A stretch of 64,000 nt of DNA from Promethearchaeota archaeon (GTDB taxonomy: Archaea > Asgardarchaeota > Lokiarchaeia > Sigyniarchaeales > SOKP01). The stretch's first letter is position 1. Each line of letters starts with the position of its first letter. The notes under the pieces are model-generated. The model was not told the DNA's origin. It was given only the letters and a program-made list of their open reading frames with translations, and made no database searches. Of the stretch, positions 15,467 to 22,235 are shown one piece after another. A program made the position numbers and the translations under genes. The stretch covers positions 74,680 through 138,679 of the forward strand of contig JAEOSU010000032.1 of the NCBI GenBank assembly GCA_016840165.1. The letters run 5' to 3'.

Positions 15467-16012
15467 ATGCCTAAAGATGAGAAATTATCAAAAGAATATG
15501 TTTATCAAAAAAGAATTCGTGAAATTGAAAAAGAGATTATTGATTTCTTTGTTAAAATTGGAGAACAACGCTATTTAACTCCTAAGTTTTCAATAATTTT
15601 CGGATATTTAATTATTCATCGAGTTCTTTCTCAATCAGAATTAAGTGACCTAACAGGTTATTCAATAGCAACGGTTTCAAATACGCTACGATTAATGCTC
15701 AGCTTAAATTTAGCTAGTAAGCGTCTAAGGCCTAATTCACATGAATATGAGTATTATATCTTCGGGGAAAATACAAGCTTAACTCCACAATCGAGTAAAT
15801 TTAAATTGGAATCCGTACAGCAGGGTTTAGATTTTTTTTCTAATAAAAAGCAGCAGCTTGAAAAGAGCAATCTAAAAGAAAGGAAAGGGTATAATTTATT
15901 ACTCCAAAGAATAGAAGAATTACTTAACTTCTTAATTGTTTGGAAATCAATGATTGAATTCCAGACAACATTATTTATTGAATTTATGAAAAAAAACCAG
16001 CTATCCATTTAA
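15467..16012 (+). CDS. Winged-helix transcriptional regulator (GbsR/MarR-like)
   Basis: LSQSELSDLTGYSIATVSNTLRLM HTH; helical C-terminus. Confidence 0.75.
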   Translation: MPKDEKLSKEYVYQKRIREIEKEIIDFFVKIGEQRYLTPKFSIIFGYLIIHRVLSQSELSDLTGYSIATVSNTLRLMLSLNLASKRLRPNSHEYEYYIFGENTSLTPQSSKFKLESVQQGLDFFSNKKQQLEKSNLKERKGYNLLLQRIEELLNFLIVWKSMIEFQTTLFIEFMKKNQLSI

Positions 16013-16016
16013 TCCT

Positions 16017-16520
16017 ATGAGGAATATCAACCCTATAGATAAAGATGTAGCCAAATTTGAAAAGGAACTTATCGAATTCATGATAAGATCTCCGCTCTTT
16101 TTCGACCAAAATCAAATTTTTTCGATGATTAAATCATATTTTGTAACTCGTAAATACCTTGATCAAGCATCTCTTAGAAAAATTACCGGGCTTTCTGCTG
16201 GAAAAGTATCCCAGGAACTACATAATCTCATTGAAATGGGATTAATAGAAGAAAATAAAATAGAAAATTCTCGAAAGATTATCTACTCAATGAAATCAAT
16301 ACAAAAATCATTTCTTGCATCTGCAATTAATGCAGTAAAAGAGATTGCTGAATGGCAGTCTAATTTAAGAAAAATAAAAGAGGAGCTAGATAGAGATAAA
16401 GAAGAATTGCAAAAACTTAGAGGTTATTCTGACATTTATAAAATTGTCAACCTCTTTTCGATTTCTTTACCTTTGAATGAAAAAATGCTAGAAAAACTAC
16501 AAGAATATTATAATAAATGA
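16017..16520 (+). CDS. Winged-helix transcriptional regulator (GbsR/MarR-like), tandem paralog
   Basis: LDQASLRKITGLSAGKVSQELHNLIEMGLI; starts 4 nt after the previous gene. Confidence 0.75.
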   Translation: MRNINPIDKDVAKFEKELIEFMIRSPLFFDQNQIFSMIKSYFVTRKYLDQASLRKITGLSAGKVSQELHNLIEMGLIEENKIENSRKIIYSMKSIQKSFLASAINAVKEIAEWQSNLRKIKEELDRDKEELQKLRGYSDIYKIVNLFSISLPLNEKMLEKLQEYYNK

Positions 16521-16554
16521 ATTATCGATTCAAAACAATTTTCAAATATTTTAA

Positions 16555-16800
16555 TTATTTCTCCCACGATTTCATTATAACATGAGTATTGCTTTGTACT
16601 ATTCCCTCTATTAAGTCAATCTGATTGGCAAAAATGTCAAATAATTCTTCTGAACTTTCAACTTCAATTTCTGCAAGCAGATCATAGTCTCCAGTTAGCG
16701 ACATTATCTTTTTAATCTGTTGTATCTTTTTTAATTCTTCAATTACCTTATTAATAACACTTAATCCTAGCTTGCAAAACATAACAGCTTTGATTGTCAA
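16555..16800 (-). CDS. Stand-alone Lrp/AsnC ligand-binding (RAM) domain protein, no HTH
   Basis: 81 aa; SLTGDYDLLAEIEV and IEGIVQSNTHVI. TTG start with AAGGGATGA upstream. Confidence 0.85.
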   Translation of the reverse strand: MTIKAVMFCKLGLSVINKVIEELKKIQQIKKIMSLTGDYDLLAEIEVESSEELFDIFANQIDLIEGIVQSNTHVIMKSWEK

Positions 16801-16819
16801 TCTAAATCATCCCTTTTCT

Positions 16820-18136
16820 TTAAGTTATTTTTTCAATCTTATTGATAAAATAAATATCTACTTTTTTAATATCACTTATGCTTTTAAGTTTTTTATCTAC
16901 AAGGTAGTAGAAATCTTTAATCGAGCTAATTTTTATATTTATTAATAAATCATGATAACCAATTAAAGCATGTATAGCAACAATCCCATAATTTTTTAAT
17001 ATTTTAACGGGTAATAACCCCATCGAACCTTTTCTTAAGGTAATTAATAAATAAGCATTTACCATATTTTTAACTTCATGGGCATAACGTAAAATTATGG
17101 AGATCACTATCAGAAAGATGAATATTATCAGAAGCTCAAAAGGAAAGAATTCACTAACTAGAATTACTGACAAGATGATTGAACCCATCGGATCTATCAG
17201 ATTTAAGATACTACTCCACTGGCTATAAGTTAGATTCAATGATTTCCAATTTACATTCGCAAGGTATATGAGTAAATAAGGAATGATGGTCGAGAAAATA
17301 ATGAGATAAATGATTTCCCATCGTTCAAGATATAAGAAGATATTTGTAAATTCATTAAAAAATAAGATAATTTCAAGCTTTAAATCACTAAAAATCGGTA
17401 AGAAATTTAAGACCATTAAAAAGGGTATCATTAGTAAAGTTCCAATAAGAAATGATAAAGACATTTTAATTAAGAATCGTGGAATTTTGTAATATTTATT
17501 TTCATTAATGCTGGTTAACTCCAATTTGGAATATGAATCCTTATTAATGCCTACATAAAGAAATGATATCGAAACACTAAATAAGATAAGATAAACAAAT
17601 CCATTAAGAGAAATTGGTTCACCATGAAGTTGAGCACTTTGATATGAGACAAATAAAATTATTAAAATTGCAAAAAACATCAAAGCAATATATAAGGCTT
17701 TAAAAACATCGAATTTTTCAAAATTTCGACCTGCTTCATATATAGCAATGATAATTACGCTTAATAAGAAACCAATCATCGTAAATGAAATTGACGTGAC
17801 CTTTAATGTGAGAAAAAAGAAGACAAGATTGAGAATAACTCCGCAAAATCCAATTAAAATATAATAGTGATAATTTCGTATATTGTTGAATCTTCTATTC
17901 TTATGCCTAATATTTTCAAACAGGAGTTTGATAGAAATTTTTGCATTATTGGTTAAATGATTATTTATTAGAGTAAACAAAATCGCAATAAATAATAGAA
18001 ATGAGCCCGAGACAGTAAATCGAATAAAAATTATCATAAATACGGAAATCTCGGAGACCAAATCAGAAACTAAAACAGGAATAAAACTCCATAATAGATT
18101 TGCAACAACTATGTTGATTACATACTTGTTCTGCAT
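16820..18136 (-). CDS. DMT/EamA-like transporter fused to a C-terminal Lrp/AsnC RAM domain
   Basis: ANLLWS...IFIRF and STIIPY...NLIDPMGSIILSVILVSE (EamA repeats, about 10 TM). The last 81 aa (MVNAYLLI...ALIGYHDLLINI...) follow the RAM pattern. Confidence 0.75.
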   Translation of the reverse strand: MQNKYVINIVVANLLWSFIPVLVSDLVSEISVFMIIFIRFTVSGSFLLFIAILFTLINNHLTNNAKISIKLLFENIRHKNRRFNNIRNYHYYILIGFCGVILNLVFFFLTLKVTSISFTMIGFLLSVIIIAIYEAGRNFEKFDVFKALYIALMFFAILIILFVSYQSAQLHGEPISLNGFVYLILFSVSISFLYVGINKDSYSKLELTSINENKYYKIPRFLIKMSLSFLIGTLLMIPFLMVLNFLPIFSDLKLEIILFFNEFTNIFLYLERWEIIYLIIFSTIIPYLLIYLANVNWKSLNLTYSQWSSILNLIDPMGSIILSVILVSEFFPFELLIIFIFLIVISIILRYAHEVKNMVNAYLLITLRKGSMGLLPVKILKNYGIVAIHALIGYHDLLINIKISSIKDFYYLVDKKLKSISDIKKVDIYFINKIEKIT

Positions 18137-18371
18137 TAGAATTTCACTTCTATTGATTCTTTAATTTTTTCCCATAAGCTTGGCGAGAGTATATGTAGAA
18201 TTATTTGAATACTTTACGATCTTCATAATAATTTACTCTAGTTTGATTTATAAAACCATCTGTGCCCATTTCATTCCCAACATTAAAATTGATATTGATG
18301 GTCTAATGTTATAGATAAAAATATAAATTATCGGCAATAATCTTACAAAAGAATTACAATAAGAAGATATT

Positions 18372-19631
18372 ATGCCAAGTTCAAAAGATTTTATTGATAT
18401 GGATCATGAGTATTGTGCTCATAATTATCATCCCATACCCGTTGTTATTAGTAAAGCTGAAGGGGTTTGGGTATATGATCCAGAAGGTAATAAATATTTA
18501 GACTGCTTATCAGCATACTCAAGTCAGAATACGGGACATTGTCATCCCGAAATTATTAATGCATTGAAAGAACAAGCTGATAAGGTCACACTTACATCTC
18601 GTGCATTTCATAATGATATGATGGGCCCGTTTTTGAAAAAGCTCTGTGATATTGTTGGACCACATGTTAATGATCCAAATAATTCAGGAATCATGAGTAT
18701 TCCAATGAATACGGGAACAGAAGCAGTAGAAACTGGATTAAAAGTCTGCCGTGCATGGGGATATATAAAGAAGAAAATTCCTAAAGACGAAGCAAAAATA
18801 ATCATCTGTAGAAATAACTTTCATGGAAGAACGATAACTATAGTAGGTTTTAGTACAGATATTTCTGCAGTACGCTATTATGGAAATTTTGGTCCTTATA
18901 CCCCTGGGTTCGTAATAATACCCTATGGAGATGCTGATATCTTAGAAAATACTATTTTAGAATTGGGTCCTGAAAAAGTTGCGGGATTCTTATTCGAGCC
19001 TATTCAAGGAGAGGCGGGAGTAAATGTTCCTCCAGAAGGATATGTAAAAAAAATCCGAGAAATTTGTACCAAATATAATGTCTTAATGTTAGCTGACGAG
19101 ATTCAAACTGGTTTTGGCAGAACTGGTGAGTTATTTGCTTGCGATCATGAAAATGTGAAACCTGATATGTTACTTTTAGGCAAAGCTCTTGGTGGAGGTG
19201 TTTATCCTGTCTCGGCAATTGTGACAACTAAAGATATTGTTGGACCAGACGTAATCAAACCTGGAACACACGGATCCACTTTTGGGGGAAACCCACTTGC
19301 ATCAGCAGTTGCTATGAAATCACTTGATATTCATATTGATGATCACCTTGCCGAAAGAGCGAAAAGAAGAGGGGGATACTTCATTGAAGGGCTTAGAAAG
19401 ATCGCATCGAAAAATACTATCCTCCCTATCAAAGAAATACGTGGTAAAGGATTATTAATGGCAATTGAATTTACAACAGATGCGAGGCATATTGTAGAGA
19501 TGTTGAAAGATAAAGGAATTTTAGCTAAGGATACCCATTCCACCACTATACGTTTTGCTCCACCTTTAATAATTACAAAAGAACAAGTGGATTGGGCTCT
19601 ACAAATTATTGAAGCAGTACTTGTAAAATAA
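18372..19631 (+). CDS. rocD: Ornithine--oxo-acid aminotransferase
   Basis: AHNYHPIPVV, LSAYS, MNTGTEAVET, FHGRT, EPIQGEAG, LGKALGGG, HGSTFGGNP. Confidence 0.92.
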   Translation: MPSSKDFIDMDHEYCAHNYHPIPVVISKAEGVWVYDPEGNKYLDCLSAYSSQNTGHCHPEIINALKEQADKVTLTSRAFHNDMMGPFLKKLCDIVGPHVNDPNNSGIMSIPMNTGTEAVETGLKVCRAWGYIKKKIPKDEAKIIICRNNFHGRTITIVGFSTDISAVRYYGNFGPYTPGFVIIPYGDADILENTILELGPEKVAGFLFEPIQGEAGVNVPPEGYVKKIREICTKYNVLMLADEIQTGFGRTGELFACDHENVKPDMLLLGKALGGGVYPVSAIVTTKDIVGPDVIKPGTHGSTFGGNPLASAVAMKSLDIHIDDHLAERAKRRGGYFIEGLRKIASKNTILPIKEIRGKGLLMAIEFTTDARHIVEMLKDKGILAKDTHSTTIRFAPPLIITKEQVDWALQIIEAVLVK

Positions 19632-19703: not shown

Positions 19704-22235
19704 TTACATATAAAGATTTAATACTGATTCAGCAACTTTCATAACATCCCAATAATTGTAAAGCATGGGTTTGTATGTCCAAGTTTCATATAAAGCAAGT
19801 TGATCGTATGCATGGTTATATTCTCCTAAATAATTAAGAAATCCGCTTTGACCTGGTGGAATAACATTCACTGCATGAGGTAACGCGAAAAGGTTTCTCC
19901 AATCATAATAGTTCCATACAATCATTTCTGCTATTTGATTGTAAGTACCACGGTTCATATAATGCATTACCGGCCTAGGTAGGGCTCCAATTTGGTCAGG
20001 AATCCATTTAATGACAGGAGTAAGCCAGGTAGACATATCTGGCCCAAGATTTTCCGTTAAATTACCAATAGTCCATTTGAGCACTCGGCAAATGACCTCA
20101 TCTCGGTCTTCTCCATTAAGATAATCATAATTCAATGGTAACTTAGAAGCTGAGCCGTCAAAGACGTGAATTATCGTACTTGGCCACACTCTTGCATATT
20201 CTCGGTGTATAGGTCCAACTTCAGCATATGTCGGAAGATCATCTTCAAACACTTCTTCAAATATTCTATCGTACCAATCGTCAAAGATTGTTAAACCTGT
20301 GTCGTCATAAGTAGCATCGACAGCAGGCCACATAGGATCTATATAGTCATTATAATGGTGATCCCAAGCCTCCAAATAGTCAATTACTTCACTTGGAATA
20401 GTTGGATCTGTTTTAGCGGCATCCACTACGAAATCTAAGAGATTCATTCCGGGAATGTGATTATATCCGGCGTCTCTGACAATTCTATTCATATCTTCGA
20501 AAGTAATATCATTATCTGCAGCTAAAAGTTCCATTATTATTCCAACTCGATGACCTTGACCCCAACCAGCATCAGATTCTCCAAAAGGCCAATTTGTAAC
20601 AGGCTTATTATTCCAATTAGCAAGATAACCCTGTGAAGGATTGTAGCATTTTGGCATTTCTTTAACGCCAGTAACACCAAGCCACTCTTCTTCTCCAGTA
20701 CCCCATAATGGTAACCTGTCATCAATCATTCTACCATTCTTTCCAGTAGTAGGTTTTATTGGCCATTTACCTGAATGAAAATATGCAATATTTCCGTCCC
20801 TATCAATCCAATAGAAATTATGGGCAGCATGTACTTTTCCAGCTGCAACATACATGTCCCATGCATCTGTACTTTGTTGGAAAAGAGACCATCCTTCTTC
20901 AGCTGCAAGTTCATCCTTGTAATAAGGAGTTTTCATCGTAAAACAAAGATTGTTATCAAGATCCCATCCAATTATCGGGCCATGAATAGTTCGATAAATA
21001 TCTCTATCTTCATAGGTTAATTTTAAAGGACCATAAAATCTTTCTGTTCTTTTTTCCATGTCAACCCATTCACCATTATACCTATATTGATATTGATTAT
21101 CTGGATTGAGAACCTCTATGTAGGTATCCATGTTATCTGAGACTCCAGTAGTTGAGGTCCATGCGCCCCATTTACTTACACCAATTAGAATACTTGGAGC
21201 ATGAGGCATCATCATCCCAACAGCATCGATTCCTGCACCATGTAAACCAACTTCAAGAACAATCTGGGGGATAGATTGACCCATTTGTGGACCACCTTGT
21301 AGAAGAGGATTTCCATTTGTGGCTTTAAATGGACTTACCATAAACGCATTACTACCAAATTTAGTAGGTAAACCCAACGATTCAAACAAATGAGTCTGTC
21401 CCATCTTCATTTCTTCATACTCACTAGATACTGTTCCTAAGCTTGGAAGATCAGAGCCACAAACAAAATCCATCGAATAAGAACTAGAAAATTCAGGCCA
21501 ACTGTCGTATTCAGGAGGAATAGTCACTTCTGCTCCAGGATCATTCTGTGGGAAATGATCATTGAACATTGCCCATCCAAATTCATCTCCATACTTATCT
21601 TGTAAAGCTTCTAGGGCAGCAGCATATGAGAGTTCGTCACCCCCACAACCACCGAATCTCCAAGCCATCATTACCACTATTGCAACACAATCTTCAATCG
21701 TAAAAGGCTCAAGAGGTAGCCCAAATGCTAGATATTCGACTGGCATCATAGAGGGATCCCCTGAAGCAAGTTTCGTTAACGCTTGTGAGATGTAAAGATT
21801 TATACCATCAACATATGCAAGCATCATTTCTTTTAGTTTTGCACTGGCTCTATGAGGTACCCAATTATCAAAAATTTCCCTTAATTCTTCTTTACTATAC
21901 GCCATACTTCTAATATTATAATCAACATCTATGCTAGCAAGGCCAAATTCAGCAAGACTTCCATATCCTTGCCTGCGATATAAATCTGCTTGCCATAACC
22001 TATCCTGAGCCATCGCATACCCACATCCATAGGCTAAACCCTCTTTGGTTCCTGCGTAAATATGTGGAACACCATAATTATCTCGGACAATAGTGATTTT
22101 ATTACCGTAAAACCAAAAACTACTCTCAGCTTCATTATTACTAGAGTCAATACTAAATGGAATCGTTATAACTGCAGGGAGTGTGGTTATTAAAAATACT
22201 AGTGATATTAACACTACCAATAGTTTTTTCTTCAT
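19704..22235 (-). CDS. Secreted penicillin acylase family (S45) Ntn-hydrolase
   Basis: Signal peptide MKKKLLVVL..., IVRDNYGVPHI, AQDRLWQ, G|SNAF autocleavage Ser, NWNNKP, PPGQSG. Confidence 0.88.
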   Translation of the reverse strand: MKKKLLVVLISLVFLITTLPAVITIPFSIDSSNNEAESSFWFYGNKITIVRDNYGVPHIYAGTKEGLAYGCGYAMAQDRLWQADLYRRQGYGSLAEFGLASIDVDYNIRSMAYSKEELREIFDNWVPHRASAKLKEMMLAYVDGINLYISQALTKLASGDPSMMPVEYLAFGLPLEPFTIEDCVAIVVMMAWRFGGCGGDELSYAAALEALQDKYGDEFGWAMFNDHFPQNDPGAEVTIPPEYDSWPEFSSSYSMDFVCGSDLPSLGTVSSEYEEMKMGQTHLFESLGLPTKFGSNAFMVSPFKATNGNPLLQGGPQMGQSIPQIVLEVGLHGAGIDAVGMMMPHAPSILIGVSKWGAWTSTTGVSDNMDTYIEVLNPDNQYQYRYNGEWVDMEKRTERFYGPLKLTYEDRDIYRTIHGPIIGWDLDNNLCFTMKTPYYKDELAAEEGWSLFQQSTDAWDMYVAAGKVHAAHNFYWIDRDGNIAYFHSGKWPIKPTTGKNGRMIDDRLPLWGTGEEEWLGVTGVKEMPKCYNPSQGYLANWNNKPVTNWPFGESDAGWGQGHRVGIIMELLAADNDITFEDMNRIVRDAGYNHIPGMNLLDFVVDAAKTDPTIPSEVIDYLEAWDHHYNDYIDPMWPAVDATYDDTGLTIFDDWYDRIFEEVFEDDLPTYAEVGPIHREYARVWPSTIIHVFDGSASKLPLNYDYLNGEDRDEVICRVLKWTIGNLTENLGPDMSTWLTPVIKWIPDQIGALPRPVMHYMNRGTYNQIAEMIVWNYYDWRNLFALPHAVNVIPPGQSGFLNYLGEYNHAYDQLALYETWTYKPMLYNYWDVMKVAESVLNLYM

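Follow-up and report, generated by a model that had tools for sequence, protein, structure and literature searches.

Our results lean towards the idea that two adjacent genes in a 64,000-nucleotide stretch of DNA from a Promethearchaeota archaeon (assembly GCA_016840165.1, contig JAEOSU010000032.1, positions 74,680 to 138,679; hereafter the window, meaning that whole stretch) form an operon for a secondary transporter that carries its own amino-acid sensor. The first gene (16820..18136, minus strand, stop codon at 16820-16822) encodes a 438-residue DMT/EamA-type transporter with a C-terminal RAM domain, as supported by the open reading frame, Pfam, AlphaFold2 (AF2) and Foldseek. RAM domains are the part of Lrp/AsnC gene regulators to which the effector binds. 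The second gene (16555..16800, minus strand, TTG start) encodes a free RAM protein of 81 residues. The intergenic spacer between them (16801..16819, minus strand) is, at 19 nucleotides, too short to hold a separate promoter for the free RAM gene. In the reading that we hold with moderate confidence, based on sequence comparison and structural modelling, the tethered and the free RAM domains would pair as a heterodimer, which would sense an amino acid in the cytoplasm and exert allosteric control over the gating of the transporter.

The transporter and its tethered RAM domain

The membrane domain of the transporter (residues 1-356; 17069..18136, minus strand) was delimited using the AF2 model, the loop charges and the invariant columns of the alignment. 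Pfam recognises EamA (PF00892) on residues 5-161 with 34.4 bits against a cut-off of 28.2; the second EamA repeat was not detected by Pfam, and no NCBIfam model matched the protein. The AF2 model, built on 28 homologues (mean pLDDT 76, pTM 0.70), shows ten transmembrane (TM) helices together with short extra helices in the TM2-TM3 and TM7-TM8 loops. Both loops are conserved inserts in the alignment, the first of them (HKNRRF) being cytoplasmic and basic, and the RYAHEVKN junction that joins the membrane domain to the RAM tail is invariant. Counting lysine plus arginine in the loops gave 11 inside and 2 outside. By the positive-inside rule, both termini lie on the cytoplasmic side, and the RAM domain with them.

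In support of a DMT carrier, Foldseek matched the membrane part to LicB (7paf, TMt 0.70), YddG (5i20, 0.64), CST (6i1z) and nucleotide-sugar transporters. When the whole two-domain model was the query, the DMT and RAM matches had a probability of 1.00 but E-values of 1e-3 to 1e-1, with none at E <= 0.001; these weak E-values are explained by the presence of two domains in the query. The ten-helix inverted-repeat fold is shared with bacterial DMT/DME carriers (YddG, LicB, and the EamA and RhtA exporters), as is the EamA match on the first repeat, but the Asgard transporter differs from them in its very divergent sequence, its extra conserved loops and its RAM tail. More than 220 close homologues of 434-457 residues were found, all of them from Asgard metagenome-assembled genomes (MAGs). 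A search of the family profile against 1.84 billion cluster representatives returned just 100 proteins (36 at E <= 1e-30), only two of which were plain DMT-length proteins, and we therefore regard the family as a small, sharply separate DMT subfamily. Note that NCBI phylum labels are unreliable for this transporter-RAM family. The ESM Atlas also suggests similar clusters of about 415 residues with PF01037, which carry the label Thermoplasmatota.

The tethered RAM domain (residues 357-438; 16823..17068, minus strand) is basic, with a net charge of +7, and was assigned from AF2, Foldseek, phmmer and the alignments. In the AF2 model it adopts the beta-alpha-beta-beta-alpha-beta arrangement at residues 359-431, and Foldseek superimposes it on the stand-alone RAM protein 2cvi_A (TMt 0.78, rmsd 3.0 over 77 columns) and also on AsnC, Lrp and FL11. 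By sequence (phmmer), its nearest relative is the stand-alone RAM protein DM1 (2e1a). Pfam AsnC_trans_reg (PF01037) gave 20.7 bits on residues 382-431 of the transporter and 24.7 bits when the tail of 81 residues was searched alone, with a cut-off of 25; most homologues carry a precomputed PF01037 match, and some relatives exceed the cut-off, such as P0127 with 29.9 bits. In the alignments, G393 and D396 are retained and the Thr-x-Thr clamp is replaced by V-D-I. Judged from these alignments, the amino-acid backbone-contact site of the tethered domain is incomplete on its own.

The free RAM protein

The free RAM protein scores 48.8 bits with PF01037 (cut-off 25), and its closest solved relatives are the RAM domains of FL11, which is the nearest, 2djw and LrpA. 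Its ligand motif, SLTGDYD ... SNTH, is complete: alignment to FL11 identifies G37, D40, S70 and T72 as the relevant residues, and all 32 orthologues share G37, D40 and T72, with either S or T at position 70. In the structure of Grp with glutamine, the amino group of the ligand is held by D102 and by backbone oxygens of the beta2-beta3 loop, and its carboxylate by the backbone nitrogen of G99 together with T132 and T134 of the neighbouring dimer (PMC2504300). All four Grp contacts (G99, D102, T132 and T134) are matched in the free RAM protein, and only two, by G393 and D396, in the tethered one. Since only the free protein keeps the full backbone-binding set, it is the predicted ligand-competent half of the pair.

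The same split is seen in distant lineages and in the bacterial copy described below, where (S/T)G-x-YD and a late (S/T)-H mark the free type and the late threonine is missing from the tethered type. In a second subfamily of the module, the free RAM protein has TGEYD ... T-x-T, and the tethered RAM domain keeps TG-x-YD and one threonine. From these motifs, the free subunit is everywhere the ligand-competent half, the tethered copy having degenerated to differing degrees. In the ortholog alignments, mean column identity is 68% for the tethered RAM domain and 80% for the free one.

Neither protein has a helix-turn-helix (HTH) match in Pfam or NCBIfam, and none was found in the free partners of the other lineages. 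Without an N-terminal winged HTH, the two proteins are not members of the Lrp/AsnC transcription factors; by their domain content, homologues are misnamed where NCBI or JGI label them, for example, 'Lrp family transcriptional regulator'. About ten other PF01037/RAM matches are present in the window genome, several of them in full-length open reading frames of Lrp size.

These results bear on an initial annotation of the window, which had been made from the letters alone. Its gene structure (a 438-residue transporter, an in-frame ATG at 17065, an 81-residue free RAM protein and a spacer of exactly 19 nucleotides) agrees with the open reading frames and the sequence. The motifs that it had contrasted, ALIGYHDLL with SLTGDYDLL and VDIY with NTH, are as it gave them, it was right that the free protein keeps the amino-acid-binding residues and that no HTH is present, and the RAM fold, on which it had made its proposal depend, is what the AF2 model and the 2cvi_A match returned for the C-terminal segment. 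It had also aligned the tethered and free domains with each other. Pairwise BLASTP gave no significant alignment between them, and their likeness is visible only through profiles and structure. The profile search that it had suggested was clear for EamA and for the free RAM protein; the tethered tail stayed under the PF01037 cut-off.

Conservation of the gene pair

The adjacency of the two genes, which the initial annotation had expected to be kept in relatives, is conserved. We examined 42 close genome loci, 3 of which end at a contig edge, and in all 39 with enough sequence the free RAM gene lies directly downstream of the transporter gene. Across 38 loci the spacers measure about 4-33 nucleotides, and the free-RAM start is often preceded by GGAGG/GAGGTGA motifs resembling ribosome-binding sites. 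The transporter was found by search in 96 of 400 genomes of the phylum: by GTDB family, in 77/134 of f1 (the family of the window), 9/14 of f3, 4/4 of f4 and 3/3 of f9. The free-RAM profile has matches, weaker ones included, in 173 of the 400 Asgard genomes.

At distant loci, the free RAM gene is directly downstream in 13 of the 17 that were fetched. Seven of these 13 carry two tandem free RAM genes (L043, L044, L045, L052, L056, L057 and L058, including a closed genome that NCBI names Ca. Harpocratesius repetitus), and six of the seven are assigned to family f3. The two tandem proteins differ in their C-terminal signatures, EWEK in one and HW/RW... in the other, so that the stoichiometry may be one tethered to two different free RAMs.

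The pairing extends to the second subfamily, sampled at loci outside f1, in which a transporter-RAM fusion adjoins a free RAM gene in 26 of 26 cases. These fusions are polytopic membrane proteins of 406-485 residues with a C-terminal RAM domain, several of them matching EamA, and their genes overlap the free RAM gene or lie within about 40 nucleotides of it. The subfamily includes family f13, whose proteins NCBI labels Heimdallarchaeota, and its profile aligns with that of the first subfamily from TM3 through the RAM domain (hhalign probability 96.4%). Both gene orders occur, free-then-fused in 11 cases and fused-then-free in 9. The pair is thus kept through a change of gene order, which points to selection on co-expression and not to inherited synteny. 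Taken over the genomes sampled, we estimate that the module is present in about 40% of Asgard genomes.

The two genes are also present and absent together. In g1, the genus of the window, both genes occur in 23 genomes and neither in 13, and no genome has a free-type RAM alone; six genomes have only a transporter fragment at a contig end. In genus g12, the identical 17 of 54 genomes carry both. One g1 genome (G241:C15:33858-34043) has a second, partial free RAM gene with an in-frame TGA, about 150 nucleotides beyond the intact copy, that is, a decaying tandem duplicate.

A fused module in Bacteria

A 541-residue protein labelled Spirochaetota joins the two products in a single chain. It consists of a membrane domain, a fused-type RAM (about residues 345-430), a linker of about 30 residues and a free-type RAM (461-541), the last of which matches the free-RAM profile at E 6e-16 and ends in EWEK like the first free RAM of family f3. 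Ten nucleotides after its gene lies another free RAM gene (86 residues), with a C-terminus that resembles the second free RAM of f3. The whole bacterial module (L060/L061, 6001-7897), namely the 541-residue TM-RAM-RAM protein and the 86-residue free RAM, occurs on two contigs, independent of each other and 112 kb and 35 kb long, one from the Spirochaetota MAG JAFLEE010000006 and the other a JGI contig, both with bacterial neighbours (SBP_bac, GH3, sulfatase and IclR). By its domain order, the arrangement is that of f3 with the first two genes joined. The Spirochaetota copy apparently reflects inter-domain transfer of a three-gene, f3-type module, at least once, to Bacteria. A natural fusion of this kind between transporter and free RAM, a Rosetta stone, is classically taken to mean that the two products function as a unit.

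Model of the RAM heterodimer

The tethered RAM domain and the free RAM protein were folded together as a 1:1 pair from alignments that we built ourselves. The heterodimer model scored 0.76, and the best of 3 controls scored 0.00. The mark used was reached by 58 of 80 solved complexes and by 2 of 110 mismatched pairs, counts that hold only roughly here because our own alignments were used. Across the runs, contact agreement was at least 100% and the pLDDT of the partner at least 91. The modelled interface is the canonical RAM dimer, with beta2 of each chain against the C-terminal strand of the other. The model supports, but does not demonstrate, binding between the tethered and free RAM domains.

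The charges of the two proteins point the same way. The fused RAM domain has 13 K/R and 6 D/E and the free RAM 9 K/R and 13 D/E (net charge -4), which are exactly the counts given in the initial annotation, and opposite net charges are present in 32 of 32 orthologous pairs (tethered +1 to +10, free -2 to -6). This polarity fits a heterodimer, and would also be expected for a membrane-proximal domain and a cytosolic one. The initial annotation had proposed that the two RAMs hetero-oligomerise and that an amino acid thereby controls transport; the natural fusion and the heterodimer model fit the pairing, which is the first part of that proposal only.

Proposed mechanism and alternative explanations

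In the mechanism that we favour, the free RAM would complete the lone tethered RAM into a 1:1 heterodimer through the canonical RAM dimer interface. An amino acid, bound where RAM dimers meet, would then change the conformation or the assembly state of the RAM module, and the change would be passed through the RYAHEVKN junction, and probably through the conserved cytoplasmic loops (the basic TM2-TM3 loop), to the transport domain. Flux through the transporter would in this way be adjusted post-translationally, the outcome being either an exporter opened as an overflow valve or an importer shut by trans-inhibition. Precedents exist for the first steps: ligands bind between RAM dimers, usually driving the dimers into octamers, and the stand-alone RAM protein DM1 forms hetero-octamers in vitro with the regulator FL11 (PMC2995911).

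Several observations weigh against this mechanism. The tethered tail of the window protein is just below the Pfam PF01037 cut-off. Because solved RAM dimers exist, the success of the heterodimer model may reflect memory of the fold and not of this particular pair. Adjacency is not universal: the four f4 genomes are without an adjacent free RAM gene, three of them carrying a free-type RAM on the same strand but 2-5 kb further downstream, and a displacement of 1.6 Mb also occurs. The loss of one gene readily takes its neighbour with it, which makes their co-absence weaker evidence than it appears. An orphan free-type RAM gene (L068 1350-1604, A3 free-RAM profile E 1e-41) lies beside methylmalonyl-CoA mutase in G165, a family f1 genome; this genome is 78% complete and the transporter may lie elsewhere in it. 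The free RAM could also join the other RAM proteins of the genome, the full-length Lrp-size ones included. The non-RAM neighbours vary by lineage (rocD, FGGY kinase, CLC-CBS, amidohydrolase). Finally, we know of no DMT transporter that is allosterically regulated.

A more elaborate possibility, which we put forward only tentatively, is that tethered and free RAMs form ligand-dependent higher assemblies, from a dimer of heterodimers up to an octamer-like ring, and thereby join several DMT protomers.

Unlikely, in our view, is that the pair acts as a membrane sensor, or transceptor, in which the tethered RAM would hold the free RAM according to the transport or ligand state, and the released RAM would join Lrp regulators and alter transcription instead of gating the carrier. 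In its favour, DM1 forms hetero-octamers with FL11 in vitro (PMC2995911), and the window genome offers candidate partners in its ten or so further PF01037 matches, several in Lrp-size open reading frames. The higher conservation of the free RAM (80% against 68% column identity) would be expected if it had several partners, and the spacer between rocD and the transporter holds a conserved operator-like repeat. Against a released regulator, no Lrp-type HTH gene is conserved near the module in the loci examined, and the free-type RAM of the Spirochaetota protein, covalently fused to its transporter, is unable to be released. Moreover, no g1 or g12 genome that lacks the transporter has a free-type RAM, though Lrp regulators are general.

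Less probable again is that the RAM heterodimer is constitutive and purely structural, serving to stabilise, assemble or oligomerise the transporter without ligand regulation. A lone RAM would expose its dimer face and need a cap, the tethered RAM has lost the Thr clamp, and for certain Lrp-like proteins of archaea the prediction is that they bind no amino acid (PMC2995911). The invariance of G37, D40 and T72 of the free RAM across the subfamilies and in the bacterial copy is, however, hard to explain without ligand binding, and in the second subfamily the tethered RAM too keeps TGxYD and one Thr.

Finally, an MthK-like design, in which a soluble copy of the tethered RAM made from an internal start would form the ring and the downstream RAM gene would be accessory or unrelated, is highly improbable: the in-frame ATG that the initial annotation had offered as that start (M358, 17065-17063) does open an 81-residue, RAM-sized segment, but the column in 28 aligned homologues reads L14, I6, V4, M3 and S1, so that 25 of the 28 have L, I, V or S there, no obvious ribosome-binding site was seen upstream of it by inspection, which was not a formal scan, and it is a dedicated free RAM gene that is conserved instead.

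Neighbouring genes and the divergent intergenic region

Upstream of the transporter gene lies a divergent rocD gene (18372..19631, plus strand), as the initial annotation had stated, encoding an ornithine--oxo-acid transaminase (Aminotran_3 E 9e-121; TIGR01885 523.4 bits, cut-off 378.4). A divergent rocD is present within 6 kb in 32 of the 42 close loci, directly adjacent in about half of them; it is absent from the 17 distant loci examined, and the link is seen only in the GTDB family of the window. Carbamate-kinase-like, aldehyde dehydrogenase and ornithine carbamoyltransferase (OTC) genes lie 3-6 kb beyond rocD in the window. Since the operon is divergent from rocD, with OTC and carbamate kinase nearby, a reasonable but weak guess from this gene context is that ornithine or a related amino acid is the effector or substrate in this lineage.

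Outside f1, the same approach to the substrate failed, the neighbours being heterogeneous (FGGY kinase, amidohydrolase, CLC-CBS channel, Asp/Glu racemase and AstE-like genes). In family f9 (L048, L049 and L055), the module adjoins a CLC chloride-channel homologue with CBS domains, which is another transporter with a fused cytoplasmic sensor. In one Lokiarchaeial genome (L045, 1170-2984), a 605-residue protein of the Ras/Roc small GTPase family, an Asgard eukaryote-like signature, is encoded near the module.

The divergent intergenic region between the transporter and rocD (18137..18371) contains a G-rich direct repeat, TGGGAA-N4-RTGGG, at 18265-18279 on the minus strand, with half-sites 11 bp apart. 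The repeat is kept in 18 of 20 orthologous AT-rich spacers, in which GGGAA is invariant and TGGG nearly so. It occurs once in the window, where 0.05 sites are expected, and 7 times in the genome, always intergenic, compared with 1 for the reversed control. On this evidence it is a candidate operator or promoter element. No clear amino-acid regulon emerges from it, as the six other sites flank heterogeneous genes (beta-eliminating lyase, UDP-glucose dehydrogenase, POR/amine oxidase, nitroreductase/TFB and PGM/MFS). A scan of 16400-18450 with Rfam found no RNA family.

On the other side, two tandem paralogous genes of 181 and 167 residues (15467-16012 and 16017-16520, plus strand) converge on the free RAM gene. 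Their products have weak winged-helix matches (MarR/TrmB/ArsR-like), and a few relatives (L001, L018, L032 and L041) have the pair too, at a distance of 2-5 kb from the module. Adjoining rocD is a gene (19704-22235, minus strand) for an 843-residue protein of the penicillin-amidase (Ntn hydrolase) family with an N-terminal hydrophobic segment (Pfam E 7e-122).

Discussion

It is an established principle that transporters are regulated through ligand-binding domains (CBS, RCK, the NIL/C2 domains of MetN, TOBE, and PII with Amt). What is new here is that the putative sensor is of the RAM type, is borne by a DMT carrier and comes with an obligatory free partner. Databases already compute both domains on the transporter-RAM proteins, some of them mislabelling these as Lrp transcription regulators. 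Our literature searches found no paper describing a RAM domain fused to an EamA/DMT transporter, and the Asgard transporter census (PMC7997004) makes no mention of the architecture.

The module resembles the Lrp/AsnC regulators and the stand-alone RAM proteins (FL11 and DM1 of P. horikoshii, Grp and STS042 of S. tokodaii) in its RAM fold, in its modelled dimer interface and in the ligand-contact residues of the free protein. FL11 and DM1 also offer the case of a stand-alone RAM assembling with a RAM on a larger protein, as is proposed here, with ligands that bind between the dimers and change the assembly state. It differs from them in that no DNA-binding HTH is present, the RAM sits on a ten-helix transporter, the partner gene is fixed alongside and the tethered Thr clamp has been lost.

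Other transport systems provide functional comparisons. Trans-inhibition acts on the methionine ABC importer MetNI, through C-terminal C2 (ACT/NIL-like) domains, and on ModBC, through TOBE domains. MetNI is comparable in that a small ferredoxin-like ligand domain, at the cytoplasmic end of a transporter subunit, forms dimers and, on binding the amino acid that is transported, closes the transporter by an allosteric effect. MetNI differs in being a primary ABC transporter whose two tethered domains are identical; in the present module the carrier is a secondary one of the DMT type, and of its two domains one is tethered and the other free, both of the RAM and not of the NIL/TOBE type. RCK gating rings lie under the membrane transport proteins MthK and Ktr/Trk, the soluble copy of MthK arising from an internal start. 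In these rings a single type of ligand-binding domain is present in tethered and in soluble form beneath a membrane protein, as we propose for the RAMs, but RCK domains serve ion channels, and in the present module a separate gene encodes the soluble copy and the internal Met lacks conservation. GlnK (PII) is a small co-transcribed soluble metabolite sensor that docks on the membrane transporter AmtB and regulates it. The pairing of sensor and transporter is alike; the fold is different, GlnK is a trimeric plug and AmtB has no tethered copy of the sensor.

The Lrp-controlled exporters follow the same logic, in which a RAM domain senses an amino acid in the cytoplasm and is coupled to the transport of amino acids. 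Lrp-type transcriptional control of an amino-acid exporter is known from Lrp-brnFE. The coupling is there made by DNA binding and transcription, whereas in the module the sensor is attached to the transporter. A second case, control of the amino-acid exporter leuE/yeaS by Lrp, is one that a passage of PMC7997004 cites (its ref. 102). If our reading is correct, the module would be the direct, post-translational counterpart of the common circuit in which Lrp senses an amino acid and the exporter gene is switched.

The physiological role of the stand-alone RAM proteins was called unclear in a 2010 review (PMC2995911). They would gain a concrete role as the ligand-competent half of a transporter-borne sensor, and DMT carriers would have, in the tethered domain, their first described regulatory domain. 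Should the higher assemblies also prove true, the module would give the DMT superfamily its first secondary transporter with allosteric gating by an amino acid. With domains of about 80 residues and one carrier, the system is small and well suited to biochemistry and cryo-electron microscopy. The Asgard lineage lives largely on amino-acid catabolism, and the module therefore probably matters for balancing amino-acid uptake, overflow and fermentation.

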